Made by a program: the position numbers and the translations under genes. The notes under the pieces were generated by a model. That model saw only the letters and a list, made by a program, of their open reading frames with translations, did not search any database and had not been told where the DNA came from. Shown piece by piece: positions 8,685 through 64,000 of a stretch of 64,000 bases of DNA (within the stretch, counting starts at the first letter, position 1; every line of letters starts with the position of its first letter). The stretch is from a virus (Duplodnaviria > Caudoviricetes): positions 137,896 to 201,895 of the IMG/VR virus record IMGVR_UViG_3300028832_000095; one strand, 5' to 3'.

Positions 8685-8686
8685 TT

Positions 8687-11373: not shown

Positions 11374-11405
11374 ATATTTACTAGGATATGTCAGGATGTT
11401 ATTAT

Positions 11406-11579: not shown

Positions 11580-11782
11580 TGAGGGCATATACAGTTAATT
11601 ATAGACTTCATCCATATGACGAACATGAGACACAAATTTCTTTTCTTGCAAAAAATAAGCAAGATGCTTATGATAAAGCTGTATTTGAGATCATCCCACA
11701 AATGGAAGGTGAATCTCCTTATCACGCTTATGTTTATTCTGTGACTTATCAGAATGGTAATTATAAGATTTTTAATTGGTAA
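11579..11782 (+). CDS. hypothetical protein
   Basis: GGAGG RBS; TAATG stop/start overlap. Confidence 0.65.
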   Translation: MRAYTVNYRLHPYDEHETQISFLAKNKQDAYDKAVFEIIPQMEGESPYHAYVYSVTYQNGNYKIFNW

Positions 11783-30234: not shown

Positions 30235-31056
30235 ATGTTTAATATGGATAATTATTTTGTTGGTGTGTTTAAGAATGATGATTACGATGCTGACGGCAAT
30301 CGTATCTATGATGATGTTTTTACATTTGACGATAGATCCGATGCTTGGGATGAAGCCCTAAAATGGAACCTAAAAGGATATTGGGTTGAATTCGCTTCCA
30401 TTGAAAAAGTAGGTTATGGTGATTATAGAGATGACTATGACTACTACGAAGAAGAGGATTACAATACATATGATTATGCTCCCTATGAGATGAGAAAATA
30501 TATGTCCTCTATGGGAGAATCAAACAGGAGGAAAAACATGAAACTTAGAATTGATGAAGATAACTATGGTTATGATTCTAATGGTAATGAGATTGATGAG
30601 TCTATGGTAGAGGAACTTTATAGAGTTGCCAATAGTGAAATTCTTTCTGAGTCTGAATTAGCTAAGATTGGTTATGCTGATATTGATGAAGATTCGTGGG
30701 AAGTGTATAACACCGGAACGGCATACGGGATGAATCTTACATACAATATCAATTTTGATGTAGATAGTAATGCTATTGATCTTGAACAGTTTGTTACTGA
30801 TAAAAATATTCTAATACCTATTTTTGATGCAGATCATGCTACGGCAAAACTCAATTTCGTTATCCATGTCTATAACGGAACTGATATTGAAGTAGAACTT
30901 ACTGACTATTCTGTATATGACTGCGGAGACTTCTATAGTGAATATGATACAAATAACTTCAAGAGTTATGTCAATGTCAAAGCACTGGAACAGCTTGTAA
31001 AGGATATGTCTCAGGAAGTTGTAAATGAGATTCAGGGAACATTGAGTAATATTTGA
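30235..31056 (+). CDS. acidic two-module protein with internal RBS and MKLRIDE
   Basis: AGGAGG at about 30527-30532 precedes in-frame ATG 30538. Confidence 0.75.
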   Translation: MFNMDNYFVGVFKNDDYDADGNRIYDDVFTFDDRSDAWDEALKWNLKGYWVEFASIEKVGYGDYRDDYDYYEEEDYNTYDYAPYEMRKYMSSMGESNRRKNMKLRIDEDNYGYDSNGNEIDESMVEELYRVANSEILSESELAKIGYADIDEDSWEVYNTGTAYGMNLTYNINFDVDSNAIDLEQFVTDKNILIPIFDADHATAKLNFVIHVYNGTDIEVELTDYSVYDCGDFYSEYDTNNFKSYVNVKALEQLVKDMSQEVVNEIQGTLSNI

Positions 31057-41746: not shown

Positions 41747-41783
41747 TATGAAAATTAGATTTTTTGAAAGGGGTTGCTTCACA

Positions 41784-45633: not shown

Positions 45634-45662
45634 TTGACAACGATTTGCAAATATGTTATACT
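45634..45662 (+). promoter_or_regulatory. sigmaA-type promoter
   Basis: TTGACA-17nt-TATACT with TG extension. Confidence 0.85.
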
Positions 45663-47486: not shown

Positions 47487-47687
47487 TTGGTTAAATTGAA
47501 ACTTAGAATCAATGAAGATACTGCTTGTATTCCTTCAAAAACATCTTATATGAATGAAGATGGATTTTATAATGGAATATATTATTTTGGAGATCCTAAA
47601 CAGCCAAAGAGTTGGAGAGATTATGTAAAGAGTAAAAAGAAACAAACAGAAAAACTAACAATTGCAGAAACAGACGAACAGCTTTAA
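47487..47687 (+). CDS. small protein with KLRINE leader
   Basis: AAGGAG RBS; start uncertain. Confidence 0.6.
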   Translation: MVKLKLRINEDTACIPSKTSYMNEDGFYNGIYYFGDPKQPKSWRDYVKSKKKQTEKLTIAETDEQL

Positions 47688-47699: not shown

Positions 47700-48395
47700 A
47701 TGATAATAGGTGGTATACAAAAACTAACACTTTTAGATTATCCTGAAAAAGTAGCGTGTACTGTTTTTACATATGGATGCAATTTAAGATGTCCTTTCTG
47801 TCATAATAAAGCATTAGTTACAGAATCCGCAACAAATGTTATTCAGGAACAGCAAATATATGATTTTCTAAAAACAAGAAAAGGAATACTTGATGCTGTA
47901 TGTATCTCAGGTGGTGAGCCTTTTCTTAATTTAGATATAATTGATTTTGCTAAAAACATAAAAGAAATGGGATTCCTTGTAAAAGTAGATACGAATGGAA
48001 CTTTTCCGGAACGATTAGAAGAACTATGTAATACCGGATATATAGATTATGTAGCAATGGATATAAAGAACAGTATTGATAAATATACCATGACTTGCGG
48101 AATAGATAAGATCGTTGTTGGAAAAGTTATGAAATCGGTTAGTTACCTAATGTCACAAGATAAAGTTGATTATGAGTTCAGAACAACTTGCACAGAGACA
48201 TTTCATACTGAGGAAGATATAGATAAAATAGCTTCTTGGATCAAAGGATGTAATCACTATTATTTACAGAAATATCTTTATCGAGAATCCGTTATAGACA
48301 AAACTTGTTTAGAATGTAGTAATGAGAAGATGAAAGACTTCTTAGCTATTGCACAACGGCATATACCGAATACAAAACTAAGAGGAGTTGAATGA
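47700..48395 (+). CDS. nrdG: anaerobic ribonucleotide reductase activating protein (radical SAM)
   Basis: GGIQKLTLLDYP..GCNLRCPFCHN (CxxxCxxC), ISGGEP, KVDTNG, AMDIK, YEFRTT. Confidence 0.9.
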   Translation: MIIGGIQKLTLLDYPEKVACTVFTYGCNLRCPFCHNKALVTESATNVIQEQQIYDFLKTRKGILDAVCISGGEPFLNLDIIDFAKNIKEMGFLVKVDTNGTFPERLEELCNTGYIDYVAMDIKNSIDKYTMTCGIDKIVVGKVMKSVSYLMSQDKVDYEFRTTCTETFHTEEDIDKIASWIKGCNHYYLQKYLYRESVIDKTCLECSNEKMKDFLAIAQRHIPNTKLRGVE

Positions 48396-48398: not shown

Positions 48399-48638
48399 AT
48401 GAAACTATATATTCACGAAAAAGGAAAAGATAATCACTATTTTTATGTTATGGGATGGAAGACAGATAATAAGCAATCTGCACCATATAAGAGATGTAAA
48501 TTCGATATCTATGATGAAGCAGTACAGTTCTTCAAAGACATATCTAAGGTATGTAAATATGTTGAAATGTTTGAGTATATTGGAGGAAAAAGAAAGTGGA
48601 TCGCAGATACAGACGATACTTCCATTTTTGAAACCTGA
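48399..48638 (+). CDS. hypothetical protein with MKLYIHE leader
   Basis: GAGGAG RBS. Confidence 0.65.
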   Translation: MKLYIHEKGKDNHYFYVMGWKTDNKQSAPYKRCKFDIYDEAVQFFKDISKVCKYVEMFEYIGGKRKWIADTDDTSIFET

Positions 48639-49946: not shown

Positions 49947-50249
49947 ATGGTTCGTCTATTAGAATATGAACAGTTGATACATGTTGATGCAAAAACAGAA
50001 TTGAAAAAAGCTACAATTCAGTATGCTTTGTATAATGCTCAATATACAAGAAGATATGCAAAGTTTTATACTGGAAAATATTATATCACAGTTTCATTCA
50101 ACCGTGATAATACAATTCAACTATCATCCAATTATCGTGTTGACATGAAGTTTAATAGAGACTTACAGCGATTGGAAGATCAAAAGTATACTCTTTATAA
50201 GACTACATACTTTATTTGGTATTGGATGAATAAACTAAGAAAACTATAA
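49947..50249 (+). CDS. hypothetical protein
   Basis: GGAGAGG RBS; MVRLLE start. Confidence 0.7.
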   Translation: MVRLLEYEQLIHVDAKTELKKATIQYALYNAQYTRRYAKFYTGKYYITVSFNRDNTIQLSSNYRVDMKFNRDLQRLEDQKYTLYKTTYFIWYWMNKLRKL

Positions 50250-50266
50250 GAAAGGATCTAGTTGCT

Positions 50267-50980
50267 ATGAATAAATTTATTACAAAGGTTTTCAAAGGCG
50301 CAGGAGTTAATGCAAAAGTGTCTAAAGATTCTAAAAATCCAAGATTTAAGGTAGTAGAGAATAAGCTAACACTTGAAGGCGTTGTGACTCCTACAAGATA
50401 TAAGATGACAATCACAGATAATACTGGTGCTGAGATTGATGAACTTTCTGTTTCTATTAAGAATAGCAATGATGTTGTAAATAGAATCAATGAATCTATT
50501 CAAACACTTCAAATGCTTTCTAAGGCATATGACCACAAGAAACTTGTCGAGGAAGATGAAGAGTTTGATACTGTCACAGTAGATGATGAAGAAGAAATTA
50601 TTGACGAAGAGCCAAAGGATATTGTTGATGGTCTTGCAGAAGTATATGAGGATGTTCTTGATATCGCTGAAAAAGTACAGTCTTTAACAGATCTTGTTGA
50701 TGATAACGATGCAGAAACAATTAACAACATTATCGGAATAACAAGTTCTTTATATGATTGTGCCATTGATATTGATGATTTCAAAATGGAGTTAGAGCCA
50801 GAGGAAGAAGAGGATATGGACGAATCCTTAAACAGAAAAAAGACTTCTTCCGGATATGTTAAGAATGTTATCAGTAACCTTACAATGTCTGAATCACTGC
50901 TTAGAGGAAACAAAGAACTTAGAGATATCTATAATGCTATAAAGGATATTAAATCAGAGTTGATAGTTAGGGGATATTGA
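50267..50980 (+). CDS. acidic helical protein (possible head core/scaffold-like)
   Basis: KKLVEE and MDESLNRKK motifs bracket an acidic helical segment. Confidence 0.6.
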   Translation: MNKFITKVFKGAGVNAKVSKDSKNPRFKVVENKLTLEGVVTPTRYKMTITDNTGAEIDELSVSIKNSNDVVNRINESIQTLQMLSKAYDHKKLVEEDEEFDTVTVDDEEEIIDEEPKDIVDGLAEVYEDVLDIAEKVQSLTDLVDDNDAETINNIIGITSSLYDCAIDIDDFKMELEPEEEEDMDESLNRKKTSSGYVKNVISNLTMSESLLRGNKELRDIYNAIKDIKSELIVRGY

Positions 50981-50982
50981 TT

Positions 50983-51414
50983 ATGATCTTCTTAAATCAT
51001 GAGGAAGAACCTGTTGTTACAATAAACAAAGACATGGTTCTTGATTATAAACAAACAGGTGACGATTGTTTAGTTGGAATTAAAAGAGAACTTTCTAAGC
51101 AGCTCGTATACTATATCTTATATACAGACCTACAAGAAGTGAATGCTTCATTTGGAACAATTATTGAAAAATTGCTTGATAATAAGTATTTAGATGTTCG
51201 TGATCTGGATAAAGACATAGCGAAACTAGATAAGAACTGCAAGGCTTTATTAAAAAGCTGTGATGGTTTTGTTGAAGAATATGTTATCGAAAATGTAAAA
51301 ATATGGGTTGATAGACTTCTCCTTTGTGTTTCAAAGTTGAAGTATATCCTTGATAAGTTCTGTACTGATAATTCGGAGGGAGTATTTAGAAATGAAGTTC
51401 GTCCAGTTTTCTAA
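50983..51414 (+). CDS. hypothetical protein
   Basis: AGGGG RBS. Confidence 0.65.
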   Translation: MIFLNHEEEPVVTINKDMVLDYKQTGDDCLVGIKRELSKQLVYYILYTDLQEVNASFGTIIEKLLDNKYLDVRDLDKDIAKLDKNCKALLKSCDGFVEEYVIENVKIWVDRLLLCVSKLKYILDKFCTDNSEGVFRNEVRPVF

Positions 51415-51610
51415 TATGCCTGTAAAGGTAAGAATCAAATGGGTTCAGGATAAACTAATTAAGTTCGGTTATTTGTCTGAAGGGGAGAGTGTTCCATTTA
51501 AAAGAGATAAAAAATATATCAAAGCTCTTATGAGATTTCAAGATAATCATGGAATGACCCCTAATGCAGATATAACCGAACCTCTTTTTGATAAATTAAA
51601 CTATAATTAA
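51392..51610 (+). CDS. stand-alone peptidoglycan-binding domain protein
   Basis: IKWVQDKLIKFGYL..KALMRFQDNHGM..I..L. Confidence 0.65.
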   Translation: MKFVQFSNMPVKVRIKWVQDKLIKFGYLSEGESVPFKRDKKYIKALMRFQDNHGMTPNADITEPLFDKLNYN

Positions 51611-51630
51611 ATCAAAGGAGGATAATTTAA

Positions 51631-52011
51631 GTGAGATTCAATAAAAGGTTTAATAAGTTTTATGATAAAAAACTTAAAGAAGCAGATGATGCTGAAATTG
51701 AAAATGATGAGATAGAAGAAATTGAAGATGTGATTGAGGAACTTGATATTGAAGCGGTACTTGAAGAAATAGCAGATAAACTAGGATTTGATTATACAAG
51801 TTCTAATGGATCTGGATCATATTCTATTTCAGATAATGTTGAAGTTCGTGTTAGATTTACACCAAAGAAGATTTCAAGAATTCAAACTGTTATTCTTAAA
51901 AATCCGGCAAGATTTGATTGTACTAAAAATACAACAACAGTTGATAATTTATCAGTAGAACTACAAACAAGTGTTCTTATTATAAAAGAAATAAAACAAA
52001 AACTTATGTAA
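51631..52011 (+). CDS. hypothetical protein, basic leader then acidic segment
   Basis: AGGAGG RBS, GTG start; KKLKEA. Confidence 0.7.
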   Translation: MRFNKRFNKFYDKKLKEADDAEIENDEIEEIEDVIEELDIEAVLEEIADKLGFDYTSSNGSGSYSISDNVEVRVRFTPKKISRIQTVILKNPARFDCTKNTTTVDNLSVELQTSVLIIKEIKQKLM

Positions 52012-52020
52012 TGGGGTGTT

Positions 52021-53010
52021 ATGATGAAACTTGTGTTTGAAGATTTTGAAAGCACAACTTCTATTGGAACAGAAGATAATCCTCTTTCAGTTTTTGAACA
52101 AGGGGATTTTGTGCAATACGGTGATTATGTCGATATAGCATCTGCTATGGAACCAATTGCAGATGCATCAAGTGTATACGAAGATTTAGAAGCTATTGGA
52201 TTTGTACTTATGTTAGCATCTAACGATATTCATACAATTCATATCAATGCCCACGGTAAGGATTTTACAAGACTTCACCTTGAAACAGATGAATTGTATA
52301 AACAGTTAAATGAGTACAGCGATACTTGCTTAGAGATGTGTTGTGAGGATGGACACTTTATTCACAATCTCAACAATGCAAAAGATTGCTTAACTCAGTG
52401 GAGTATTGAAGTTCCTGACTGTGAAGGTTTTACTCTTATAGACGGGATTCGTGTTACAACGGAAATTCTTAATAATGTTATTGTTGCTATTTCAGAGGTA
52501 TATAATGATTGCACAACAGATGTTCAGTCTACATTAGATGAGTGGTTACGCTATCTAAATTCTAAGATGAACTATTTCCTCGGAAGAATTTTACAGGAAA
52601 GCAAAAAGCGTACAAATGAAAGTATGATGAACAGAAACACAAGACATGATAAAAAGAAATGTGTTTGTGAACATCTTGATTATCTGAAATTAGGTCAGCC
52701 TTATAAGATGTTCTGTCAGGTGGAAGACCATATTGATGATTATAATTGTGATACTGTTTCACTTAAACCGGGTGATTTCATTATAAGAGATTTCCAATTT
52801 GGTCACTTGCCAAACGGAGGAAATAAAGGTTATATACCATATGAAGTAATTGATATTGAATATGATAGAGATGATGATAACGGCGGTTATTGGGATGCAA
52901 GAAAAAGACTTCACCTTTATGACGGAGAAGAAGATTTCTACATTGAGTGCTATAATGAAAGATTCAATGGTATGTTCCATAAACTGAAAAAGAGTTCTGT
53001 TAAGGAGTGA
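52021..53010 (+). CDS. Dps/ferritin-like domain fused to a second module
   Basis: HINAHGKDFTRLHLETDELY..SDTCLE resembles the Dps ferroxidase signature; MMKLVFE leader. Confidence 0.65.
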   Translation: MMKLVFEDFESTTSIGTEDNPLSVFEQGDFVQYGDYVDIASAMEPIADASSVYEDLEAIGFVLMLASNDIHTIHINAHGKDFTRLHLETDELYKQLNEYSDTCLEMCCEDGHFIHNLNNAKDCLTQWSIEVPDCEGFTLIDGIRVTTEILNNVIVAISEVYNDCTTDVQSTLDEWLRYLNSKMNYFLGRILQESKKRTNESMMNRNTRHDKKKCVCEHLDYLKLGQPYKMFCQVEDHIDDYNCDTVSLKPGDFIIRDFQFGHLPNGGNKGYIPYEVIDIEYDRDDDNGGYWDARKRLHLYDGEEDFYIECYNERFNGMFHKLKKSSVKE

Positions 53011-53016
53011 TCTACT

Positions 53017-53250
53017 ATGAAAATAATGGGAGAAGAATTTTTTGATAAGGATGATTTTTCTTCCTTAGTACGAGACATTTATGATATGTTAAACGAAATA
53101 GAAAAAAGATCCCGTAAATATGAAAAATCCATTCGAACTGAAATTCGACTTGGTTTTGATCCAGACCCACAGGACGATGATCTAAAGAAACTAGACTTTA
53201 TTCATAACAACCTACTCGGTATTATAGAAGAGCTTGATGAAAGGGAGTAA
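53017..53250 (+). CDS. hypothetical protein
   Basis: AAGGAG RBS. Confidence 0.65.
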   Translation: MKIMGEEFFDKDDFSSLVRDIYDMLNEIEKRSRKYEKSIRTEIRLGFDPDPQDDDLKKLDFIHNNLLGIIEELDERE

Positions 53251-53256
53251 TTTATT

Positions 53257-53817
53257 ATGACTGAGTATGTAGCAGAAACAAGGATTTTTCTAAAAGAATA
53301 TACAGACGAAAGAGTAGATTATTATTGTGAAAAAGGTTATGTACCTACTGAGGAAGAAGTTATTGTTGACATTTATGAAGATCTAACTCCTATGTCTTAT
53401 GACGAAGCACAATTATATAATCGTTCTGGAGTAGAAATTCTAAGTGTTGACGATTTAGCAAAGAACATTCAAAATCTAGTTTCTTTCAATCTAGATGAAA
53501 TTGATGAAAGCCTCAAACTTAAAATTCGTGAAGAGGTGGAATATACAGATACTATAGACGCTATCTATGATATCCTAAAAAGAAAATATAGAAACGATGA
53601 TAGATTTGTAGAAATTAAAGTAGTAAATAAACCAAGAAGAGCGGTTCATGTTGAAACAGAAAAAGAAATCGAAGACGGAGAAACCTTTAATATGGACAGA
53701 TATATCTATGTAGATGATTCTGATAGAATCACTATGGTTTCAAAAGATGATAAAACAAGAAAATTCGTAGATGTCGAAGCCGTTTCAGATTTCTTTGACG
53801 AATATCTAAATTCATAA
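53257..53817 (+). CDS. acidic two-module protein
   Basis: internal IDESLKLKIREE. Confidence 0.7.
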   Translation: MTEYVAETRIFLKEYTDERVDYYCEKGYVPTEEEVIVDIYEDLTPMSYDEAQLYNRSGVEILSVDDLAKNIQNLVSFNLDEIDESLKLKIREEVEYTDTIDAIYDILKRKYRNDDRFVEIKVVNKPRRAVHVETEKEIEDGETFNMDRYIYVDDSDRITMVSKDDKTRKFVDVEAVSDFFDEYLNS

Positions 53818-53821
53818 GGTC

Positions 53822-54046
53822 GTGACTAAATTGATATGTAAACATTGTGGGTGCGAAACATCTACTGTAATTTGTCATAATTGTGGAATCAATGTTGTTT
53901 GGTATAATAAATACGGTCAGTTAAACGATGATATTGAATCTGGGGAACTTGATCTTCTTTCGTATCTCAACAAAGATTCCACAGAAAAACCTAAAATAGA
54001 GGAAGTTGTAAAAGAAGTATTTAATCCAGATGGTTCTGGAGATTAA
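53822..54046 (+). CDS. zinc-ribbon protein
   Basis: CKHCG..CHNCG. Confidence 0.6.
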   Translation: MTKLICKHCGCETSTVICHNCGINVVWYNKYGQLNDDIESGELDLLSYLNKDSTEKPKIEEVVKEVFNPDGSGD

Positions 54047-54065
54047 GAAAGGGTGTAAAACTATT

Positions 54066-55103
54066 ATGGATACATACGAGATTATCTACGATTATTGTGA
54101 TGAAGACGGTTACGAGGAAACAGATTGTTCTGAAGAGTTTACTGGCACTTGGTCTGAGTTACAGGATTATATTAAAAAAATGAGAAGAAATGGTTGTTAC
54201 AACATTGATGCTAATTCTATTACGCAAGGTTTCGAAGAAAATGACTATTATGAGTCTGTTAGAAAACCTATGAAACTTAGAATAACGGAATCCGAAGAGT
54301 CCCTATGTGATAAAGTAATGGAAGTAAATGATAATGCTGGTTTCTGGACTAGAGAAGATGAGTTCGTCGAAGATATGGAAAATGCTGGACTAGAAGTCAC
54401 TGAATTCAATTATGAATATGCAACTATTGAAGATGATGACGAATGGTGTCAAGTAGATTTCATTAGAGCTAACGATACATTTACTATCGGAAATATTCGT
54501 AGGTGTGAAGAAAAGACTTGGGAAGAAAGTTATAGTATTAAGGAAGCATTTAGCAGTGATGATGATTTAGAAGATCTTATACAGTCCTTTGAACAGGAGT
54601 ACGATAGTTCTGTAACATCTATCAACTCTGCAAAACTTCCAACTATTTTTGGACTTGTTCAAAAACTCGGAGGGTTTAAGGAAGGAACTATGAATTTGGA
54701 TTTTGGTGGAGGTCGTTTTGATAATGTTGCACAATATCTAAAAGATTATGATGTCCTAAACTTAGTATACGATCCTTTCAACAGAACAAAAGAACATAAC
54801 AAAGATGTATTAGATTTTGTAAAGAAAAACGGCGGCGCTGATACTGTTACATGCTCAAATGTTCTTAATGTCATTAAAGAGCCCGAAAATAGACTTGCTG
54901 TGATTAGGAACTGTGATAGACTTGTAAAATCTGGTGGAACTGTTTATTTTACAGTATATGAAGGTTCTGGTTCCGGAGAGGGTAAGGCAGACGATAAGAG
55001 AAAGTCTTATCAAACAAATATGAAAACGGCAGATTATCAGTCTGAGTTAGAACAAGTATTTTCCGATGTTAAGAGAAAAGGAAAATTATTTATTTGTAAA
55101 TAA
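54066..55103 (+). CDS. three-module protein ending in a class I SAM-dependent methyltransferase
   Basis: NLDFGGGRFD, YDPFN, VTCSNVLNVI, GGTVYFTVYEG; linkers YESVRKPMKLRITES and WEESYSIKEA. Confidence 0.8.
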   Translation: MDTYEIIYDYCDEDGYEETDCSEEFTGTWSELQDYIKKMRRNGCYNIDANSITQGFEENDYYESVRKPMKLRITESEESLCDKVMEVNDNAGFWTREDEFVEDMENAGLEVTEFNYEYATIEDDDEWCQVDFIRANDTFTIGNIRRCEEKTWEESYSIKEAFSSDDDLEDLIQSFEQEYDSSVTSINSAKLPTIFGLVQKLGGFKEGTMNLDFGGGRFDNVAQYLKDYDVLNLVYDPFNRTKEHNKDVLDFVKKNGGADTVTCSNVLNVIKEPENRLAVIRNCDRLVKSGGTVYFTVYEGSGSGEGKADDKRKSYQTNMKTADYQSELEQVFSDVKRKGKLFICK

Positions 55104-55140
55104 TAAATATTTATTAAAACAAAAATATTTATAAATACTA

Positions 55141-55169
55141 TTGACAAATCTATATAATTGTGTTATACT
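55141..55169 (+). promoter_or_regulatory. sigmaA-type promoter
   Basis: TTGACA-17nt-TATACT with TG extension. Confidence 0.85.
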
Positions 55170-55217
55170 ATATTTAGTGTAACACAATTATATAGGGGTA
55201 GAAAGGAAGAAAATATT

Positions 55218-55469
55218 ATGATTAGACTAATTAGAGAAAATGAAGATAAGTGGTTTCAGGATACTTTAACAGTTGTTCTTGATTATTTTAATAAAAAGCA
55301 ATGGGATACTAATATTCCAGAAGTCATGAATTATGCAGAAGCCGTTGCAGAACAACTCAATAGAGACCCTGATTGGATTGACGGTAATTATACTATAAGA
55401 GATTGGTATAGAGATACATATAGAAATTATCCAGAAGAGATTGAATGGTTAGATTCTACGACTTACTGA
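55218..55469 (+). CDS. hypothetical protein with MIRLIRE leader
   Basis: AAGGA RBS. Confidence 0.7.
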   Translation: MIRLIRENEDKWFQDTLTVVLDYFNKKQWDTNIPEVMNYAEAVAEQLNRDPDWIDGNYTIRDWYRDTYRNYPEEIEWLDSTTY

Positions 55470-55493
55470 TATTAAAATAAAAGAGGTGTTATT

Positions 55494-56156
55494 ATGATTA
55501 AAATTATCAAAGAATCCTATTCCTATGATAACCAAAGAATAATGGATATACTGGATAAAATTGAATTTACTAACGATGATAGGAAAATCAATAAAGCATA
55601 TGATTTTGTAAATCATGCTTGCAGTAATATTGATGATTGTATAGAAAGTGGTTTTTATGATTTATCCGAAGCTGATTGGGCATACGGTACAGATTATATT
55701 ATTGAAGAACTTACTGATATTTTGAATGAATCTACTAGCAGATCTGTCTATACTAAAAGATCAAAAGGTAGAAGAGTTGTGGAATCTACAAATGGTAATA
55801 GAATGGTAATCACAGTTTCTAGTGGAATTAGTGCAGATGGTTTCAGTATTACTGTCACAGATAGACAAGATAACGTAGTATTCAAAGATTCTTATAGCTA
55901 TGGTTACAATGCCAGCCACGATAGAAAGTATGCAGAGTTTGCTCATAATGATGTTGTTAATGCCAAAAAGTATGGTTGGAAAGGTAGTTATACAGAACAA
56001 CCTTATGTAACAGATATTATAAATGATCTTCTCACAAAGTACAATATAGATAAGGAAGATATAGAGGTTACATCCGGAAGAAATACTTTTAGAGGGCAGA
56101 ATGTAGATTCTAAAGATGTAGATAGATTTGTTGATAAATATATCTCTCAACTTTGA
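55494..56156 (+). CDS. two-module protein with MIKIIKES leader
   Basis: internal ILNES..KGRRVVES. Confidence 0.75.
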   Translation: MIKIIKESYSYDNQRIMDILDKIEFTNDDRKINKAYDFVNHACSNIDDCIESGFYDLSEADWAYGTDYIIEELTDILNESTSRSVYTKRSKGRRVVESTNGNRMVITVSSGISADGFSITVTDRQDNVVFKDSYSYGYNASHDRKYAEFAHNDVVNAKKYGWKGSYTEQPYVTDIINDLLTKYNIDKEDIEVTSGRNTFRGQNVDSKDVDRFVDKYISQL

Positions 56157-56180
56157 TGTATTGGAAAGAAGTGATCAAGT

Positions 56181-56744
56181 ATGAAACTTATATTTGAAGG
56201 TAAAAATAAATACCGTGTATGGTATAGACCTTATTCATATCCAGATGAAGAAGATTTTATTGATGTTACAGCAAATACAGAACAAGAAGCCGTAGAATTT
56301 GCAAGAACATTAGGGTATGAAACAGAAGTGGAATTAAAAGAAGAATCTATTACAGAGGGTGTCGAAAACAAAGATATAATGGATCTTCTTACTTCTGAAA
56401 GAGTAGATCTTATGATCAAAGCATGGCAAAATTTAACAGGTTCCCTTAGCATGGAAAAGTGTTTACAGTATTTTGAAAAACTTGGTTACGATTGTTCTGG
56501 GTATACTAATGAAGAATTTAATCGTGTTTGGGATTTAGCTTGTGATGAATTTGATAATAGATATGGTGTCGAAGAAGAGGAAGAGGATTCCGTTGATGGA
56601 ATCGAAACCAAAGAAGATGCTTATCGTTGGTTACAAGATAAATTAGAAGAGTATGGAAATACATATCATTTTCCAAATGAGGACAGATATAAGTTAGACA
56701 GACTTATTGATAAGTTTGGTTCTACTTATTTCTGGAGAAGATAA
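56181..56744 (+). CDS. acidic multi-module protein with MKLIFE leader
   Basis: internal LKEESITEG. Confidence 0.75.
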   Translation: MKLIFEGKNKYRVWYRPYSYPDEEDFIDVTANTEQEAVEFARTLGYETEVELKEESITEGVENKDIMDLLTSERVDLMIKAWQNLTGSLSMEKCLQYFEKLGYDCSGYTNEEFNRVWDLACDEFDNRYGVEEEEEDSVDGIETKEDAYRWLQDKLEEYGNTYHFPNEDRYKLDRLIDKFGSTYFWRR

Positions 56745-56769
56745 TAATAGAAAGGAGCTGTATTGAACA

Positions 56770-56988
56770 ATGATTAAACTTAAAGATTTTTGTAATTCTG
56801 TCAACCTCAATACAACTTTAAATGTTTATATTAAAGGTGAGGATGAACCTACATATCAGTATATCACTGCCTATGAACTTAAACAGGAAGTTCCAAAACT
56901 TGCCAGAGAAATTGGTCTTCGTTATATTTGTATGATTGACTGTTTGGATAAAGATGTTGATATGTCTATTGAACTTTGTACGGGTTGA
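56770..56988 (+). CDS. MIKLKDF-family small protein
   Basis: paralog of 58078 and the 58317 N-terminus. Confidence 0.7.
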   Translation: MIKLKDFCNSVNLNTTLNVYIKGEDEPTYQYITAYELKQEVPKLAREIGLRYICMIDCLDKDVDMSIELCTG

Positions 56989-56999
56989 GGTGTTTTAGT

Positions 57000-57472
57000 A
57001 TGATTAAACTTATAATGGAAAATTTAAGTGACAAAGATCTTCTAGACCAATTAAATTCATTAACTAGGTATGAGGGGTCAGGAAAATTCCTTACAAGGAA
57101 ATAAAGGTATGGGAAAAGATATTGAACCAATTTGATGTTGGAACCGTTATTGCTATGGACACACACGGGGGTTATGAATGTTTTTATAAGGTTTCTGATG
57201 AGTACGATGGATGGAAACACGCCTGTCTGCACCCACCACATATTTCGGTTGTTACAACTTTTGATGTAGCGAGGAATTTGGGCGGCAGCGCATGGGTGAC
57301 AGATAATAAGAATTTTTATTTGGACAGTTTGGAGAAGTTTGAAAAGATAGCGGACTTATATTATCACAGGGATTCAAATGCTGGATCAGGCTATAATTTT
57401 TTTTTGGACCCTCTGATAAAAGAAATTTTGGTCAAAAGAAAGGTTTTTATGGATTTTAATAGCCTGGGTTGA
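57000..57472 (+). CDS. hypothetical protein with MIKLIME leader, apparent frameshift in G4 run 57074-57077
   Basis: GAGG RBS before ATG 57000; one added G joins the downstream open frame. Confidence 0.55.
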
Positions 57473-57512
57473 ATTTACCTACAGAATTATAGAGAAAGGA
57501 ATTTTAATTACT

Positions 57513-58055
57513 ATGAAACTTATTTTTGAAAAAAGACTAACCCCGGAGGAGGTTTATTCCCTTTCTAAGGGTCAGTGTTATGATTTTGAAGAATATGTAG
57601 AAGATAATTTAATGAGTTTTTATGACTATGAAATCCCAGAAGATTTTCATCTTTGTTCTTTTTCTGAATATAAAAAGATAAGTGATAAACTTGAAAGATT
57701 TTTGAAAAGTAAGAAAATTGATTTAAGTTACGATAGTATGAATCTTCCTTATTTCGGGATTAAAATTGGTGGAAATTCGGGTGGTATTGCCAGTGATTTT
57801 CTTAGAGGGATAATTAAGATTTCATGGAAACAAATTAACTTAGGTGAATTAGATAATATTCAAATAAATAAAGTATATACAAGAGATAAGTATGGTTTTT
57901 GTGTTCCAGCAACACCTAGAGAAATTAAAATTGTAAACTCTTTTCAAGATGTTGGAATTGGTTCTCGGGCATCTGTAATAGAAACGAAAACAAAATTGTA
58001 TGTAGATGATGACAATAATATCCTTGTTTCTACTTCTTCCTTTACATGGGATTAA
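57513..58055 (+). CDS. hypothetical protein with MKLIFE leader
   Basis: 180 aa. Confidence 0.75.
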   Translation: MKLIFEKRLTPEEVYSLSKGQCYDFEEYVEDNLMSFYDYEIPEDFHLCSFSEYKKISDKLERFLKSKKIDLSYDSMNLPYFGIKIGGNSGGIASDFLRGIIKISWKQINLGELDNIQINKVYTRDKYGFCVPATPREIKIVNSFQDVGIGSRASVIETKTKLYVDDDNNILVSTSSFTWD

Positions 58056-58077
58056 AAAAATATTGAAGGTGATAACT

Positions 58078-58299
58078 ATGATTAAACTTAAAGATTTTAT
58101 TGATATGTGTTCTATATCGTTTCTTTTATATGTCTATGATACAGATGACCAATTAGAAGATAGTGTTTGGAACGGATATTCTGTCAACCTTTTAAAGGAT
58201 CTTGATAACAGAGATTTATTGGACTGTTATATTACAGAGTGGGGAATGACTGACGAAGGTACTAATGAATTTATTATCTGGGTTAATGTTGAAAGATAA
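58078..58299 (+). CDS. MIKLKDF-family small protein
   Basis: AGGTGA RBS. Confidence 0.7.
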   Translation: MIKLKDFIDMCSISFLLYVYDTDDQLEDSVWNGYSVNLLKDLDNRDLLDCYITEWGMTDEGTNEFIIWVNVER

Positions 58300-58316
58300 A
58301 AAAGAGGTGTTTTAGT

Positions 58317-59099
58317 ATGATTAAACTTAAAGAGTTTTTAGATACTTGTGATTTTGTTCCTTATTTAACTATTTACACTCTAGAAGAGGAAGGTCCTGTT
58401 TTTGAAGGGGATGCAAAATTACTTTATAAGCGTCCGGCATACAAACAGCTTTTGACATCCTCTATTGAAAATTGGGGAAACTCTACCGACATTAGAGATC
58501 GCATGGCTTTTTGGGTTACACTTGATGTTATCGATTTTATTCCTTTTGATGAAAGTTACAAATCAAAGGAGAAATTAGCGATTAAAGAGTCCGATGATAA
58601 AATCACGGCAAAGAATTTTCAAGAGCTTATTGATAAGCTAGAAGATCATGGGTACTCCTGTGGACATTATTATGATGTTGATTGTCCAGATGATAATTGG
58701 CTTTATATCACTAAAAATGGGGATCCCTACGAAGCAGAGTTTTACAGATACAGTGATGGAGAGTATGAACTTTATTTAAGAAATATTCATCCCACAAAGG
58801 AAAGAACAGAAGGATGTCACGGAAAGAAAACGAAAAAGAAGTCTAAAAGAATAAAGGAAGATTCTTATGATGATATTCTTCAACCCAAAACATTTTATAT
58901 AAGAGATGTATGGGATGATGATTTATACGATATTAACGATTATGCTGAAACACTAGGTTTTTCTATGGATCAATTTGAATATGATGGAAAAGATCTTAAA
59001 ATAACTTACGATGCCTATGACAGATTAGGTTATGAAAAATGTGCTAAACTGTATAACTGGTATATAGAAAATATTTATCCGGAACACGAGGAGTATTGA
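58317..59099 (+). CDS. three-module protein
   Basis: MIKLKEF module; linkers FDESYKSKEKLAIKES and RTEG..KKSKRIKED. Confidence 0.75.
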   Translation: MIKLKEFLDTCDFVPYLTIYTLEEEGPVFEGDAKLLYKRPAYKQLLTSSIENWGNSTDIRDRMAFWVTLDVIDFIPFDESYKSKEKLAIKESDDKITAKNFQELIDKLEDHGYSCGHYYDVDCPDDNWLYITKNGDPYEAEFYRYSDGEYELYLRNIHPTKERTEGCHGKKTKKKSKRIKEDSYDDILQPKTFYIRDVWDDDLYDINDYAETLGFSMDQFEYDGKDLKITYDAYDRLGYEKCAKLYNWYIENIYPEHEEY

Positions 59100-59100
59100 T

Positions 59101-59586
59101 ATGCTAAAACACGTTATGAAAAGCTGGTATGCTCATAACTCTAATTACAAAGAATGGGAAGATAAGGTCCTTAAATATATGAACAAGGAAGAATTTGAGG
59201 ACCTTATATTCTTCCTCAAAGATTTGTATAATAGAGAAATTGGAATAGATAGTTATGTATTAAAGTTTGATTCTTTAACAAATAAGATCTCCTTTATATC
59301 TACTCCGGATTGGGATACTGAGAATGAACCTACTGTTGGTGATTCTATTTGTGCTTGGGTAGATGATAATGGAGAATTTCAGGCAAAGAAAATTAAAGGA
59401 AAGAATCAAATTTATCATAACAAGTGGCAATTCGTTCAACCTAACTATTCTGGCTTCGATGTAGAAGCCGCCAAAGAAAGAACAGATCTTTGGAATTCAA
59501 TTTCAGACATTAACAAACATAAATCCAGAATAGGATATAGAAGTTATTGGAATCAATTATTAAATGATAATGGAATTCCACTATGA
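59101..59586 (+). CDS. hypothetical protein resembling the C-terminal domain of phosphorothioation-associated methyltransferases
   Basis: KISF..PDWD..EP..S..IYHNKWQFV..Y..SRIG....W. Confidence 0.55.
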   Translation: MLKHVMKSWYAHNSNYKEWEDKVLKYMNKEEFEDLIFFLKDLYNREIGIDSYVLKFDSLTNKISFISTPDWDTENEPTVGDSICAWVDDNGEFQAKKIKGKNQIYHNKWQFVQPNYSGFDVEAAKERTDLWNSISDINKHKSRIGYRSYWNQLLNDNGIPL

Positions 59587-59597
59587 AGGGTGATTTT

Positions 59598-59936
59598 ATG
59601 AAACTACGAATTAAAGAATGGACAAAGGTAACATACTCAAAATCTAAGAAACACACCGAAAAAATATTGCTCGGAAGTGGTAAATTATGTATTAGACCAC
59701 TATGATATTCCAACAGCTATTTATTATGATAAAGTCTCTTGGGAAAATATGCTGGGAATTATGGCATTTCTATACCAAATATAACTGATGAAGATCTAAG
59801 AAATACTATTGTAAGAGATGTAAAAATTTATTTCAGACAAAGGGATATTATAGTAAGAATTTATAGTTCTGGTACCACGGTTAGAATATATGTAAAACCT
59901 TATGACACTGGTAAAAACATAAGTGATGATATTTGA
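59598..59936 (+). pseudogene. MKLRIKE-leader gene broken by two compensating indels
   Basis: one extra A in A6 59659-64 and one missing base near 59741-47 restore a continuous ORF. Confidence 0.5.
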
Positions 59937-59984
59937 GATTGATAGTAGGAAGAATGTTAAATATCTAAAATTATTCAAAACCAC

Positions 59985-60013
59985 TTGACATTTCTCTTAA
60001 TATGTGTTATACT
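59985..60013 (+). promoter_or_regulatory. sigmaA-type promoter
   Basis: TTGACA-17nt-TATACT with TG extension. Confidence 0.85.
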
Positions 60014-60067
60014 ATATTTACAAAAGTATATTTGAAAATATGAACATATATCTGGGAGGAAATAATT

Positions 60068-60199
60068 ATGTTGAAATATGGTATCTACACTATTGAATAC
60101 TGGACACGGTTACCGTTAAAAGATCCAATGACTATTGCAAAGTGGATAGATATTGACGTTAAACCTGATTTTGAATCTGACAACTTGGAAGATGTGTAA
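60068..60199 (+). CDS. 43-aa early peptide (not in ORF track)
   Basis: GGGAGG RBS; first ORF after the promoter. Confidence 0.6.
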   Translation: MLKYGIYTIEYWTRLPLKDPMTIAKWIDIDVKPDFESDNLEDV

Positions 60200-60215
60200 T
60201 ATCGGAGGTGATTAT

Positions 60216-60713
60216 ATGAAACTCAGAATTCCAGAAAGTTCGGATTGGAATACAAACACAAAGAATGAAAAAATAAATTTCATCAGAACTATAATGAAAG
60301 AGGATAATGATTATGTTGGTGACCCTTGTGTTGGTATTTTTTGGTATGATTCAAATAAAAAAGAATTATTTGGGGTTCGTTCGAATATCGCAGAAGATAC
60401 GCAGTATCATCTATCCCCTATGACACACCAAGAGATTAGAACAACAAAATTTTTGCACTATTCTGTATGGCAAAAAGAATGCAATAAAAAAGTTGATCAA
60501 AGATTTCAAACAATGGACTATACCAAGTATCCAAGGGGTAGGGTTTTTCAAGTTAAGAATAAGGGATTTGAAGTCTATGTTGGAACATGGATTAACGATT
60601 ATCCGGAGTGTAAATCCTTAGTTATTGAAGAATTTGATTTACCAGATAATACTGAATTTATTATTGATTCCCATTGGGATCTTGGTCATGGTTGGTCAGA
60701 CAAAGACTTTTAA
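60216..60713 (+). CDS. GIFW/H..W/PRGRV-family protein with MKLRIPES leader
   Basis: GGAGGTG RBS; VGIFWY..LHYSVW..YPRGRV. Confidence 0.8.
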   Translation: MKLRIPESSDWNTNTKNEKINFIRTIMKEDNDYVGDPCVGIFWYDSNKKELFGVRSNIAEDTQYHLSPMTHQEIRTTKFLHYSVWQKECNKKVDQRFQTMDYTKYPRGRVFQVKNKGFEVYVGTWINDYPECKSLVIEEFDLPDNTEFIIDSHWDLGHGWSDKDF

Positions 60714-60732
60714 TCATATTTGGTGATATTTT

Positions 60733-61164
60733 ATGATATTAAAAGAAAGTCCTGTATATCCATATGAAGGATATTTTTGGATAATAAATAATGAAGTTAT
60801 AGGTATAACCTCAGAAGTACCACACTATAATTACGACTATTCCCTGAACGGTAAAACACATCAAAATACATGGAGTAAGTTTAGTAAAGATTATTTGGTT
60901 GGTGGTAAAGAAGTTGCTTGGGATTACTTTCCTCGCGGCAGAATTATGATTGATCCAAATTATGACTTGAATGGTAAGTTTGAAGATTATTCCTGTATAG
61001 TGTTTTTGGATAAGTGCATAAATAATGTCCAATGCAAACAATTGATTACAGATTATTATAATTTGGACTTGCTAACGATTCCACATATTATGTGGACTAT
61101 GCTTGGAGAACGGGCAGGAATAGATCATTATACTTGTCATAATTGTAAAAATGGAGGATTTTGA
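60733..61164 (+). CDS. GYFW/H..W/PRGRI-family protein (close paralog of 20080)
   Basis: EGYFWII..THQNTW..WDYFPRGRI..HYTCHNCK. Confidence 0.8.
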   Translation: MILKESPVYPYEGYFWIINNEVIGITSEVPHYNYDYSLNGKTHQNTWSKFSKDYLVGGKEVAWDYFPRGRIMIDPNYDLNGKFEDYSCIVFLDKCINNVQCKQLITDYYNLDLLTIPHIMWTMLGERAGIDHYTCHNCKNGGF

Positions 61165-61165
61165 T

Positions 61166-61492
61166 ATGAGTGATGAAGTAATCAGATTTTTGCTTAATAA
61201 TTATTTTTCGGATAAGTTTGCAGAAACAGATGATGTTTATATTAGGGTATTTGAGATGTGCTCTAATTGTGGTAATTTATGGTCATTAAGTATTTACAAT
61301 AATGGTGATTGGCTTATTACCAATGAGTTTTCACAACCATGTTGGCAAAATGGTTATAATGTAATACATCAAGACAACAAATTCAAGATAGAAAATGTAC
61401 CTTGGTTTAGTAAAGAAATTCCGGAAAAAGTATCTACTATTAAAGATGTTGAAATTCTAATAAAATTTGTAGAGTCCTATAAACACAATTAA
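61166..61492 (+). CDS. hypothetical protein
   Basis: GGAGG RBS; CSNCG. Confidence 0.65.
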   Translation: MSDEVIRFLLNNYFSDKFAETDDVYIRVFEMCSNCGNLWSLSIYNNGDWLITNEFSQPCWQNGYNVIHQDNKFKIENVPWFSKEIPEKVSTIKDVEILIKFVESYKHN

Positions 61493-61507
61493 GGAGTTGG
61501 TTTATTT

Positions 61508-62176
61508 ATGAAACTGATTATCAAAGAAGAAAAATATGATCTTTCTTGGAAAGAACATGATGTAAAAATGAGAGTTGATGGAGAAATGGGAACATATCCG
61601 TCATATGCAAAAAGAGTTGGAAATTTAGTAGTAAACATTGACCCGGAGGTATTCAATAATGGAGAATTTGGATATACTGTTTACTATACTCCGCATATCG
61701 GTAAAGCAGGATTTAAGAAATCTGAATCTGGTTTTATGAATAGTTCTGAAGCTATTGATTATGCGGATACATATATTTTTGGTGCTGATGATTTTTATGA
61801 ATCAACATACTATAAAGGTGGAAAAGAATCTATTAAAACAGAGGGTTTTGGAATTGAGGATGCTCCGGGACTTTATAAACGTATATATAAAATAATTAGT
61901 GATAATCATATAAATGCTGATATTGTAGATACAGATGATAGTGATGATTATGGTTTTGTTGAACTTGATGTTGACGGCGACTGGAAGCATGATCACCTTA
62001 GATTAAAGTATCTGCTTAATCAGGCATTTAATACTGTTATCTGGAGAGAAAAAGAAAACTTCCCTAGTGATGAAGATTGTTTTAGAGCAATATATATGGT
62101 ATATCTAGCTGATCCTAAAGACGATTCTTATACAGAATCCGTAAGAAAAAGAATCAGATCTAAAAGGAAATCTTAA
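61508..62176 (+). CDS. two-module protein with MKLIIKEE leader
   Basis: linker FYES..KESIKTEG; basic tail YTESVRKRIRSKRKS. Confidence 0.75.
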   Translation: MKLIIKEEKYDLSWKEHDVKMRVDGEMGTYPSYAKRVGNLVVNIDPEVFNNGEFGYTVYYTPHIGKAGFKKSESGFMNSSEAIDYADTYIFGADDFYESTYYKGGKESIKTEGFGIEDAPGLYKRIYKIISDNHINADIVDTDDSDDYGFVELDVDGDWKHDHLRLKYLLNQAFNTVIWREKENFPSDEDCFRAIYMVYLADPKDDSYTESVRKRIRSKRKS

Positions 62177-62223
62177 GAATAATATTAAATAACTTATTTT
62201 TGAATGTAAGGGAATGAATTATT

Positions 62224-63300
62224 ATGATTAAACTATTTATGGAAAACGATTATTCAGAAACAGATGAATTTACTCTTATTAAAGAGATGAATCACTGGAT
62301 CAACTACCTAAAGAAATTCTTTGTTGATGATAAGAAAGCTCAAAAAGTTATTGCTGATTATTTCTACTACGATGATGGCGCTCATCAAGAAGACTTCAAA
62401 GAGCTTCAATCAACTGTAAAAACTCTCAGAAAATTGTGGAAGAAGTTAGATGCTATTACAGAGGATGCGGAAGAAAAAGAATATAAAGAGAAGAATAAAA
62501 AAGAATCCTACAAAAGACTTCATGAACAGGATGTAGAGATAGAAGTAAAACACGAAGGCATTCTTGAGGTTCCGGAAGGAAAGAATGTAGATGATCTTCC
62601 TATGTCTCATTTCGAGAAACTTGTAAAGAAAAATGGTCTTTCTAAAATTACAAAAGCTCTGAATAATTTACAAGTTTGGAATAAGAATGATAATAAAAAA
62701 CTTTCTAAATGGGCAGGAGATATGATTGATAAACTTACTAAAAAATATGGTAAGAATGAATCAATTTCCGTAAAGAGATTCAATGAGGGTTGGCATAATG
62801 GAGATGCAATTATAACATTTACACATAACGATGATCTTGAAGCCGATCTTGAAGAATTCCTATTTGATATCTTCAAAGATAATCCAGACGTATTTGATTT
62901 CGATTGGTCTGGAAGTAATACAAACTTATATCTGGCTTGTAATAAAGATGATTATGACTACATTAAATGGTTTATAGAGGATTGGAAAGATAAGCACAAA
63001 GATGAATATGATGAATCCTTGAAAGAAGATACATATAAATCATATTGGAAATATGATGTTGAAAGCCCTGTACTTAATAGAAATGAAGATAGTGACACAT
63101 ATCTTACAAAATACGACATAAAGAAGGTTAAACTAATTCCTTGTAAAACCCCAGAAGAATGTTACGAGGATGAAAGATATTGGGCTGTTTGTAATTACGA
63201 CTATCCACACGATGAATTTTATGGAACAAAACAAGAAGCATATGATATGTTATTAACATCATGGAACAACTCAACATATGAAAGAATTCATGATATTTAA
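62224..63300 (+). CDS. four-module protein with MIKLFME leader
   Basis: linkers KESYKRLHEQ, KNESISVKRFNEG, YDESLKED. Confidence 0.75.
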   Translation: MIKLFMENDYSETDEFTLIKEMNHWINYLKKFFVDDKKAQKVIADYFYYDDGAHQEDFKELQSTVKTLRKLWKKLDAITEDAEEKEYKEKNKKESYKRLHEQDVEIEVKHEGILEVPEGKNVDDLPMSHFEKLVKKNGLSKITKALNNLQVWNKNDNKKLSKWAGDMIDKLTKKYGKNESISVKRFNEGWHNGDAIITFTHNDDLEADLEEFLFDIFKDNPDVFDFDWSGSNTNLYLACNKDDYDYIKWFIEDWKDKHKDEYDESLKEDTYKSYWKYDVESPVLNRNEDSDTYLTKYDIKKVKLIPCKTPEECYEDERYWAVCNYDYPHDEFYGTKQEAYDMLLTSWNNSTYERIHDI

Positions 63301-63318
63301 GAATGGGTGGTGTATTAG

Positions 63319-64000
63319 ATGAAACTATTTATTGAAGAATATCCAAAACAGACAATACACAAAACAGATGAGTCCTTGAAAGAAGACTATATCAATATAG
63401 ATGGAGTTTATTATGATGATTATGAAATCTATAGAGAATACCATGATCTTATTAGATCAGACATAGTGAGCAAATTGCATGGAATATATTATGATGTCGG
63501 TGGAAACGAAGATGAATTTGTTATCGAAGCATTAGATAATGGTTTCTCTAAATTAGACATAGCGGCATTTCTTATGTATGCTGTAGAGGATAGTCTTTCT
63601 TTAAGAGAAATTAAAGCATTGTTTAAGTCATTAAATGTAAATTTAAAAGAATCCGGAATGTATGATTATTATGATACACCAAATAGTGCTTTTGATATGC
63701 ATAATGATATGCCTACACCGGAAGATGAATGGTGGGCTTCAATTCCATCTGAATTAAGAGCAGTTGTTCATGAGATGGAAGAACAAGGTTGGGAAGGTGT
63801 TGGATTTACGACAACTGGTGTTGATTATTGTATTTCCACCGAGGATAAAAATAGACCTGAACTATCATATGAAATGTGTATAAGCATTCATGACGGGGAT
63901 GATTCAGTATATCTTTCTAAATATGTTGATATCTTTGATTGGGATAAGGAAAAAGAAGTTTCCAGTATTCCAAATACATCCGGAGTAACTATTCAGAACT
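63319..64000 (+). CDS. acidic multi-module protein with MKLFIEE leader (runs off window end)
   Basis: open frame from ATG 63319 to the end; TDESLKED and NLKES motifs. Confidence 0.75.
   Translation, partial: MKLFIEEYPKQTIHKTDESLKEDYINIDGVYYDDYEIYREYHDLIRSDIVSKLHGIYYDVGGNEDEFVIEALDNGFSKLDIAAFLMYAVEDSLSLREIKALFKSLNVNLKESGMYDYYDTPNSAFDMHNDMPTPEDEWWASIPSELRAVVHEMEEQGWEGVGFTTTGVDYCISTEDKNRPELSYEMCISIHDGDDSVYLSKYVDIFDWDKEKEVSSIPNTSGVTIQN

Follow-up and report, generated by a model that had tools for sequence, protein, structure and literature searches.

A short N-terminal tag on hypervariable proteins of a Caudoviricetes phage matches the cutting rule inferred for its prohead protease

A short peptide tag recurs at the N-termini of otherwise unrelated proteins in a 64,000-nucleotide stretch of phage DNA (IMG/VR record IMGVR_UViG_3300028832_000095, Caudoviricetes, positions 137,896 to 201,895). 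This stretch, referred to hereafter as the window, forms the end of a viral contig of 201,895 bp. The tag consists of Met, usually a basic residue plus Leu, an aliphatic residue at P3 and Glu at P1; it is 5–8 residues long, with a modal length of 7 (M-K-L-x-I-x-E). The motif is tied to a hypervariable gene set and matches the inferred cutting rule of an S77 protease that the phage itself encodes.

We propose that the tag is a substrate site of this T4 gp21-type prohead protease and would double as a very short propeptide that targets proteins to the capsid. As with the T4 internal proteins (IPs) and Alt, its carriers would attach to the core of scaffold and protease while the prohead is being assembled; the protease would cut after the tag Glu, and the trimmed proteins would remain inside the head until they are delivered to the next cell together with the DNA. 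Where the motif lies between the domains of a fusion protein, it would allow a multi-domain cargo to be cut apart. On balance we favour the view, argued from the parallel with T4, that this is a short capsid-targeting and cleavage leader on a hypervariable set of cargo proteins. Cleavage, capsid loading, injection and a role of the cargo in anti-defence or host takeover are what we infer from the observations set out below.

The tag is a selected peptide signal

The contig has a GC content of 33%, and 307 of its 311 called genes lie on one strand. Its two ends share 39 identical residues (117 nt; window 63883–64000 against the contig start), indicating that the record is circular or circularly permuted. 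The cluster of tagged, or leader, genes at the end of the window thus continues at contig 1–6,200, contiguous with the head genes. For counting, the cluster was taken as contig 185,000 across the end to 6,200 (44 genes), and the other 267 genes served as the rest. A megablast search of the cluster against phage records gave no match, and relatives were reached via the protease instead. Three related contigs were taken whole: G1 (207 kb), G2 (118 kb) and G3 (46 kb), with protease identities of 64, 49 and 39%, respectively.

A strict pattern, ^M.?[KR][LI].{1,3}E, was applied to the 311 called genes and matched the start of 27, against 2.6 expected from the occurrence of its core at 0.43% of internal positions. 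Among internal Met residues, 5 of 1240 carried it. The matches were concentrated in the cluster (17/44 genes, 39%) as compared with elsewhere (10/267, 3.7%; Fisher p=5.4e-10). A looser rule, [LIV]xE with the Glu at residue 5–9, occurred at 2.2 times its internal frequency in this genome and at 2.5–3.7 times in the three relatives.

AT-rich genomes favour MK(L/I) starts, and the pattern could in principle be an artefact of composition or translation, with chance or shared ancestry supplying the rest. MK starts were indeed common at low GC: they opened 20 of 90 genes in a control taken from Staphylococcus phage K (its first 50 kb, with 29% GC and numerous small early open reading frames (ORFs)); some matches in our contig, such as MKLKELID, are clearly unrelated helices. 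The strict pattern itself, however, was found in 2 of the 90 genes of phage K, which carries a different protease type, and this 2% differs sharply from the rate in the cluster (Fisher p=5e-8). An artefact would also leave unexplained the drop from 39% to 3.7% outside the cluster, the synonymous Leu codons and the lack of BLAST similarity past the tag described next, the existence of internal copies, and a relative, G3, that keeps [IL]-x-E without a Lys at position 2. We consider it highly improbable.

All six Leu codons (TTA, TTG, CTT, CTA, CTG and CTC) are used to encode the Leu of the tag, and the ribosome-binding site (Shine-Dalgarno; RBS) is the sole element shared by the DNA upstream of tagged genes. 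Selection therefore appears to act on the peptide and not on a DNA repeat; a DNA-level cassette or microhomology was ruled out on the same two grounds. In an all-against-all BLASTP comparison most carriers shared nothing past the tag, the exceptions being one five-member paralogue family and two pairs. With these same exceptions, similarity does not extend beyond the first ~8 residues, and a paralogous family with a shared N-terminal domain was rejected. An earlier reading of the sequence, the first-pass annotation, had listed tagged N-termini on ORFs that it called otherwise dissimilar. All of these N-termini are present in the ORF translations (the KLRINE gene begins with TTG at 47496), most of the proteins proved unrelated, and the excess over start-codon and AT bias on which the idea hinged is borne out by the counts given above. 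It is close to certain that the motif is a real, selected peptide signal.

Curation left ~19 carriers in the window and ~34 in the genome, or about 25–35 overall. Several pattern matches are probably unrelated helices, namely MKLKELID at 27471 and MIKLKDF at 56770, 58078 and 58317. The last three belong to a paralogous MIKLKDF/MIKLKEF module of ~70 amino acids (aa) at 56770–56988, 58078–58299 and 58317–59099, once fused to a longer protein, whose N-terminus is probably part of the fold and not a leader. The match of an endolysin at 41748, starting MKIRFFE, is probably due to chance; this enzyme (41748–43157) has three domains, Peptidase_M15_3, Glyco_hydro_25 and PG_binding_1.

The tag ends in the predicted cutting rule of the encoded prohead protease

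The head module of the phage comprises an intein-containing terminase, a gp20-type portal, a 148-aa protein, a 568-aa protease-scaffold protein and a Gp23-family capsid protein. The nearest cultured relatives of the gp20-like portal are Streptococcus phage vB_SagM-GXN1 (38% identity), Listeria phage LIS04 and Bacillus phage SP-15. Both the terminase gene (contig 6318–8750) and the gene for the anaerobic ribonucleotide reductase NrdD (contig 115139–118657) contain an intein, with Intein_splicing and intein_Nterm matches; NrdD also has a glutaredoxin-like domain at its C-terminal end.

The 568-aa protein carries a Peptidase_S77 domain (T4 gp21 family; contig 11130–11650) in its first ~160 residues, followed by a coiled-coil, scaffold-like remainder. 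The domain scored 46.7 bits against PF03420 (cut-off 27), and when it was aligned with the T4 gp21 structure 5JBL (phmmer E=2e-5) its GELDHP and VSSRG motifs fell on the catalytic His and Ser. The most likely start, at contig 11130, gives MGKKVLIE, then TRMNSLKLNE, then S. The proteases of the relatives begin MRVLIE (G1), MKRVLIE (G2) and MKSHLIE (G3). In T4, gp21 cleaves after L/I-x-E and itself carries LIE-9 (PMC9026906). An Asp at the cleavage position in T4 prevents processing but leaves targeting intact (PMC9026906).

The capsid protein begins MASMINE-ALLE and continues through LIE and IAE to RLAE at residue 62, followed by Ala, directly before the Gp23 domain. When [LI]xE counts were tested against composition-matched shuffles, the capsid propeptide (residues 1–62) held 5 sites as compared with 1.2 expected (P=0.0015) and the scaffold-like part 18 as compared with 5.8 (P<0.0005), while the mature capsid protein showed no excess (1 versus 1.1). 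Taken with the start of the protease, this enrichment suggests that the substrates of the protease obey the T4 rule, with which the end of the tag complies. A gp21-like protease and a common site on capsid and scaffold proteins, both of which the first-pass annotation had thought worth looking for, were thus found. The propeptides of the T4 IPs are 10–19 residues long (PMC9026906, PMC5694885), and exactly six residues are removed from T4 Alt, at ITE-6 (PMC5694885), providing a precedent for a propeptide of 5–8 residues. We conclude that the tag is probably a site of the phage's own prohead protease.

Relatives carry similar clusters with rapid turnover of the carriers

A cluster of tagged genes lies directly upstream of the terminase gene in all three relatives. 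The flavour of the tag is K-L-x-I-x-E in G1 and G2 and M-I-[IT]-[IL]-[KR]-E in G3, which lacks the Lys at position 2; the invariant part is therefore the aliphatic-x-Glu and not an AAA-rich MK start. In phage GXN1 (PQ819873), M-R-L-[IV]-[RK]-L-x-E-[DS] was found on small genes scattered among the head and tail genes. As for virion proteomes of relatives, there was none in the SP-15 paper, and no paper was found on GXN1.

The carriers were less often conserved than other genes. A homologue in the three relatives was found for 15 of 36 carriers (42%) as compared with 179 of 275 other genes (65%; p=0.01), leaving 21 of the 36 carriers with none; most genes at 55,200–62,200 likewise had no homologue there. 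This fast turnover resembles the situation in T4, whose internal proteins are diverse and share only the capsid-targeting sequence (CTS) (PMC3012670).

Copies of the motif at domain junctions

The motif is also found inside proteins, directly before domains that occur alone and tagged in relatives; six such sites were seen in four domain families. The part of the 47496 protein that follows the tag Glu is internal in G1 (TESLKLYISE then DTACIPSK, at residue ~520 of 576), where there is no start or RBS context, and in G2 (RLILSIAE then DTACVASK). The G1 protein concerned, a 576-aa leader protein starting MKLRISE (165500–167230 on the reverse-complemented contig), contains a run of leucine-rich repeats that are BspA-like by eye, and its internal site precedes a small module at the C-terminus. 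A stand-alone G1 protein, MKLFILE then D, matches residues 99–105 of the window protein at 30244–31056 (MKLRIDE then D, at 30538–30558, + strand), and another, MKLYIRE, matches an internal IKLRINE in G2. The G2 protein MKIMIKE then G corresponds to an internal KKLFINE then T in G1 and to RELTINE then N in the window, residues 183–189 of the protein at 31812–33020 (32358–32378, + strand).

An internal RBS with ATG was convincing in the 30244 case alone, where the site has its own AGGAGG; the other internal sites lack start context. This 270-aa ORF may yield a nested second product from the internal ATG, or may be a recent in-frame fusion of two genes. A further leader-like site, P-MKLRITE then SEE, lies at residues 69–75 of the protein at 54066–55103 (54270–54290, + strand), with no RBS before its ATG; this protein has a Methyltransf_23 domain at residues 197–307 and no homologue in the three relatives. 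That the motif is kept where domains join is what one would expect of a site for an endoprotease, not of a translation-initiation effect or an N-degron.

The tag is predicted to lie outside the folded domains

Two tagged families were examined by alignment and AlphaFold (AF2) modelling. In the YPYEGYFW family, represented by the gene at 60733, ~85% of 101 homologues start M-x-[ILV]-x-E-[NS], four residues ahead of the conserved domain, and the untagged minority starts MTID- or MNNNIN-. The model of the 60733 protein had a mean predicted local distance difference test (pLDDT) score of 87, with residues 1–6 below 50 and the first strand from residue 11. A fold search with this domain model gave no meaningful match (TM about 0.3).

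The protein encoded at 52021 falls in phrog_3636, 'DNA binding protein', and its family is named 'DNA-binding ferritin-like protein' in some sources. At least 55 of 69 homologues start M-K-L-x-I-x-E-[DN], and a minority is without the tag. Whereas I/L/V at P3 is set by the search pattern itself, the alignment of this family is unconstrained, and it had Ile at P3 in 45 of 63 sequences and Glu at P1 in all 63. Positions P6, P5, P3 and P1 were conserved (entropy about 1.6–2.0 bits), whereas P4 and P2 were free (3.0–3.2 bits). Such alternation is what an extended strand lying in a protease cleft would show. In the model, residues 1–30 had pLDDT below 50, helices spanned 52–195 and strands 238–322; a disordered linker, in which a stretch reading NESMM-RNTRH hardly varies, connects the four-helix bundle to the C-terminal beta domain. 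Among proteins inside the head, one that binds DNA and resembles ferritin would be plausible.

In both families the models place the tag outside the folded domain, in a disordered tail. A disordered tail of M-[KR]-hydrophobic-hydrophobic character would also suit a signal at the N-terminus by which early takeover proteins are recognised or degraded and so kept short-lived, or a peptide that docks onto another phage factor: ClpXP-type N-motifs are Met-basic-hydrophobic, and the cluster lies behind early-type promoters (see below). Such a signal would leave unexplained the invariant Glu with its aliphatic P3, the same rule in the capsid propeptide and the scaffold-like part, the conserved internal copies far from N-termini and the G3 variant without a basic residue 2, and we regard it as improbable.

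Observations that weigh against capsid targeting

Several observations tell against the proposal that the tag is a capsid-targeting leader. The motif is low in information, [LIV]xE occurring at 1.8% of all positions; judged from these frequencies, about half of the loose matches are due to chance, and the assignment of any individual gene is uncertain. In the head-gene region of Bacillus phage SP-15, which has the same head module, no comparable leader was found, so that not every member of the wider clade has the trait. The majority of carriers are acidic (median isoelectric point (pI) about 5), unlike T4 IPII and IPIII, which are basic and DNA-associated. The difference in pI between leader proteins and other proteins was not significant. 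The window proteins 30244 and 31812 have internal sites yet no N-terminal tag, which fits a cleavage site better than an N-terminal address.

The cluster is also probably transcribed early, behind strong sigma-A-type promoters. Contig-wide, ~45 near-identical host-type promoters (TTGAC(A/T), 17 nt, TGTGTTATACTATATT) head the replication and (nucleotide) metabolism operons and are absent from the 6–43 kb structural block. The leader cluster or its border holds three of them, at 45634–45662, at 55141–55169 (+ strand; a strong promoter with TTGACA, 17 nt and TGTGTTATACT) and at 59985–60013 (+ strand; also strong), and another lies at contig 696. Early synthesis is compatible with later packaging, yet it is unlike a pure set of head-protein genes. 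The T4 late promoter, TATAAATA, is not positioned before the structural genes, no 6- or 7-mer was enriched upstream of them, and a late promoter was not definable.

Untagged proteins with internal copies, probable early transcription and the acidity of most carriers are what might be expected if the motif were a site for the prohead protease, or for another Glu-specific protease, and not a capsid address. The proteins would then be processed or activated in the cytoplasm, or precursors cut apart, with no packaging or injection. This sits poorly with T4, where the assembled prohead is the place in which gp21 cuts the proteins of core and shell (PMC5694885, PMC9026906). It would also not account for the strong preference for the N-terminal position (27 cases versus 5 of 1240 internal Met residues) or for a protease-scaffold protein that starts with the same tag. 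Cleavage alone is thus a serious though rather unlikely alternative, and a leader that serves for both capsid targeting and cleavage is preferred.

Tagged genes of the window

Searches of ~30 carriers against Pfam, PHROGs and NCBIfam left nearly all as orphans. All tagged window genes in the following account lie on the + strand. Two leader genes of the cluster are a 63-aa gene with a TTG start at 47496–47687, (M)KLRINE then DTACIPSK, and a 79-aa gene at 48399–48638, MKLYIHE, whose G1 orthologue starts MRLHIRE. Between them, at 47700–48395, lies a radical-SAM gene, a position that would suit a tag recognised by a modifying enzyme of its own. The gene proved to be the NrdG activase (TIGR02495, 208 bits against a cut-off of 131), in a phage that also has NrdD, and no SPASM domain was above cut-off in its Pfam and NCBIfam matches; a radical-SAM/SPASM maturase beside the tagged genes was ruled out accordingly. 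The sole other radical-SAM gene, at contig 61028, is probably QueE, and the tag is merely 5–8 residues long. There is very little likelihood that the tag serves such an enzyme.

A leader-like 100-aa gene at 49947–50249 (MVRLLE then YEQ) is kept in relatives as MKLLYE (G1) and MIPLLE (G2). The gene at 52021–53010 encodes the ferritin-like protein considered above, 329 aa with MMKLVFE then D, an acidic disordered linker, a ferritin/Dps-like bundle and a beta domain. It is followed at 53017–53250 by a 77-aa gene, MKIMGEE, homologous to a G1 protein starting MKLIIKE. Directly after the promoter at 55141–55169, the first gene is MIRLIRE (83 aa, 55218–55469). Four leader genes have no homologue in the relatives: MIKIIKE (220 aa, 55494–56156), MKLIFE (187 aa, 56181–56744), a second MKLIFE (180 aa, 57513–58055) and MKLIIKE (222 aa, 61508–62176).

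Two short leader ORFs look like decaying leader genes, or sequencing errors. MIKLIME (34 aa, 57000–57104) probably represents the start of a longer gene that continues, after a 1-nt frameshift, in the ORF at 57122–57472. MKLRIKE (35 aa, 59598–59705) is followed by in-frame stops and then by an ORF at 59739–59936, and is probably a decayed leader gene.

The YPYEGYFW family is represented by MILKE then SPVYPYEGYFW (143 aa, 60733–61164), by a distant member, MKLRIPE (165 aa, 60216–60713), and by a dispersed paralogue, MIKLYVE (20080–20520). Beyond these, MIKLFME (358 aa, 62224–63300) shares its modules piecewise with leader proteins of G1 and G2: residues 234–358 match a G1 protein starting MKLYIEE and residues 89–213 a G2 protein starting MIKLIEK. 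The last gene, MKLFIEE (63319–64000), runs past the window end and resumes at the contig start; its G1 orthologue starts MKLYIEEYPKQTIY.

Two further dispersed genes are a leader-like MIILE then D (91 aa, 4552–4827), of which G2 has a tandem run, and a PRTase-domain protein, MVYQKILKE then N (7363–8163), which is 40% identical to its paralogue, the leader protein MKLEFEG encoded at contig 1904. The first-pass annotation had held that recognisable enzymes lack the tag. This does not apply to the PRTase-domain and ferritin/Dps-like proteins, which are tagged, or to the methyltransferase, which has an internal copy; the statement is right only in part.

Directly upstream of the terminase, at contig 4726–5445, lies a leader protein, MRKRYARLKE then AKGS, that is present in all four phages. 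The versions in the relatives start MIKLIKE then VDKGY, MVKRLYINE then ANKGY and MITIKE then VNKGY. Its C-terminus is strongly conserved in this contig, G1 and G2 and lacking in G3. If any head-internal protein belongs to the non-variable core, this one is the strongest candidate.

Comparison with known systems and significance

The closest parallel is the T4 CTS of IPI, IPII and IPIII, which is removed by gp21 (Mullaney and Black 1996, as reviewed in PMC9026906, PMC3012670, PMC5694885). Both are N-terminal propeptides on unrelated, fast-evolving proteins, and both end in aliphatic-x-Glu, the cutting rule of the encoded S77 prohead protease, with the same rule in the capsid propeptide and scaffold-like part. 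The T4 CTS is longer (10–19 residues versus 5–8 here), and by inspection its sequence, MKTYQEFIAE, agrees with the tag only in the Met-Lys start and the aliphatic-x-Glu end; the two are not homologous. T4 has 3–4 carriers per genome as compared with about 25–35 here, mostly in one cluster beside the terminase gene. Internal copies at domain junctions, a protease fused to the scaffold-like part, mostly acidic carriers and a host that is probably a Gram-positive rumen anaerobe also set the present system apart. As far as sequence can test it, the system agrees with the T4 CTS in every respect except homology of the tag, which would be analogous to the CTS and not the same tag.

T4 Alt, a packaged ADP-ribosyltransferase, offers an example of enzyme cargo with a six-residue propeptide, close to the tag in length, and its second gp21 site, LTE-619 (PMC5694885), parallels the extra internal sites seen here. 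Alt is single and conserved, whereas the enzyme-like carriers here (PRTase-domain, ferritin-like and methyltransferase proteins) are a minority among orphans. In the giant phages phiKZ, 201phi2-1 and SPN3US, a diverged gp21 homologue likewise cuts many head proteins after Glu, and the DNA is delivered together with much protein by mass (PMC9026906, PMC10052503). The phiKZ-like propeptides are long (often >100 residues), their motif is S/A-x-E and they belong largely to conserved core genes, in contrast to the hypervariable set with one short tag described here.

More tentatively, a clade of T4-like phages that infect Gram-positive hosts of the rumen and gut may possess a modular system that tags, loads and cuts its cargo, with a variant in Streptococcus phage GXN1. 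An N-terminal and interdomain K-L-x-I-x-E tag would recruit any domain, precursors would be cut in the capsid, and each virion would carry tens of rapidly exchanged effectors. The proteins that T4 injects along with its DNA are active before expression of the first phage gene: the GmrSD restriction enzyme is blocked by IPI, and IPIII is required for some hosts (PMC3012670; bioRxiv 10.1101/2022.04.14.488369). If this modular reading is true, the tag would predict, from sequence alone, the injected proteins of a first counter-defence response, among them ferritin/Dps-like DNA-binding proteins, PRTase-like proteins and, in a relative, leucine-rich-repeat proteins. If the tag is a capsid-targeting leader, a seven-residue motif would provide a simple way to list candidate injected effectors in uncultured rumen and gut Firmicutes phages. 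The T4 strategy would then be open to extension from about 4 proteins per virion to about 30, and to multi-domain precursors, and a tag so short could serve to load foreign proteins into phages of Gram-positive bacteria.

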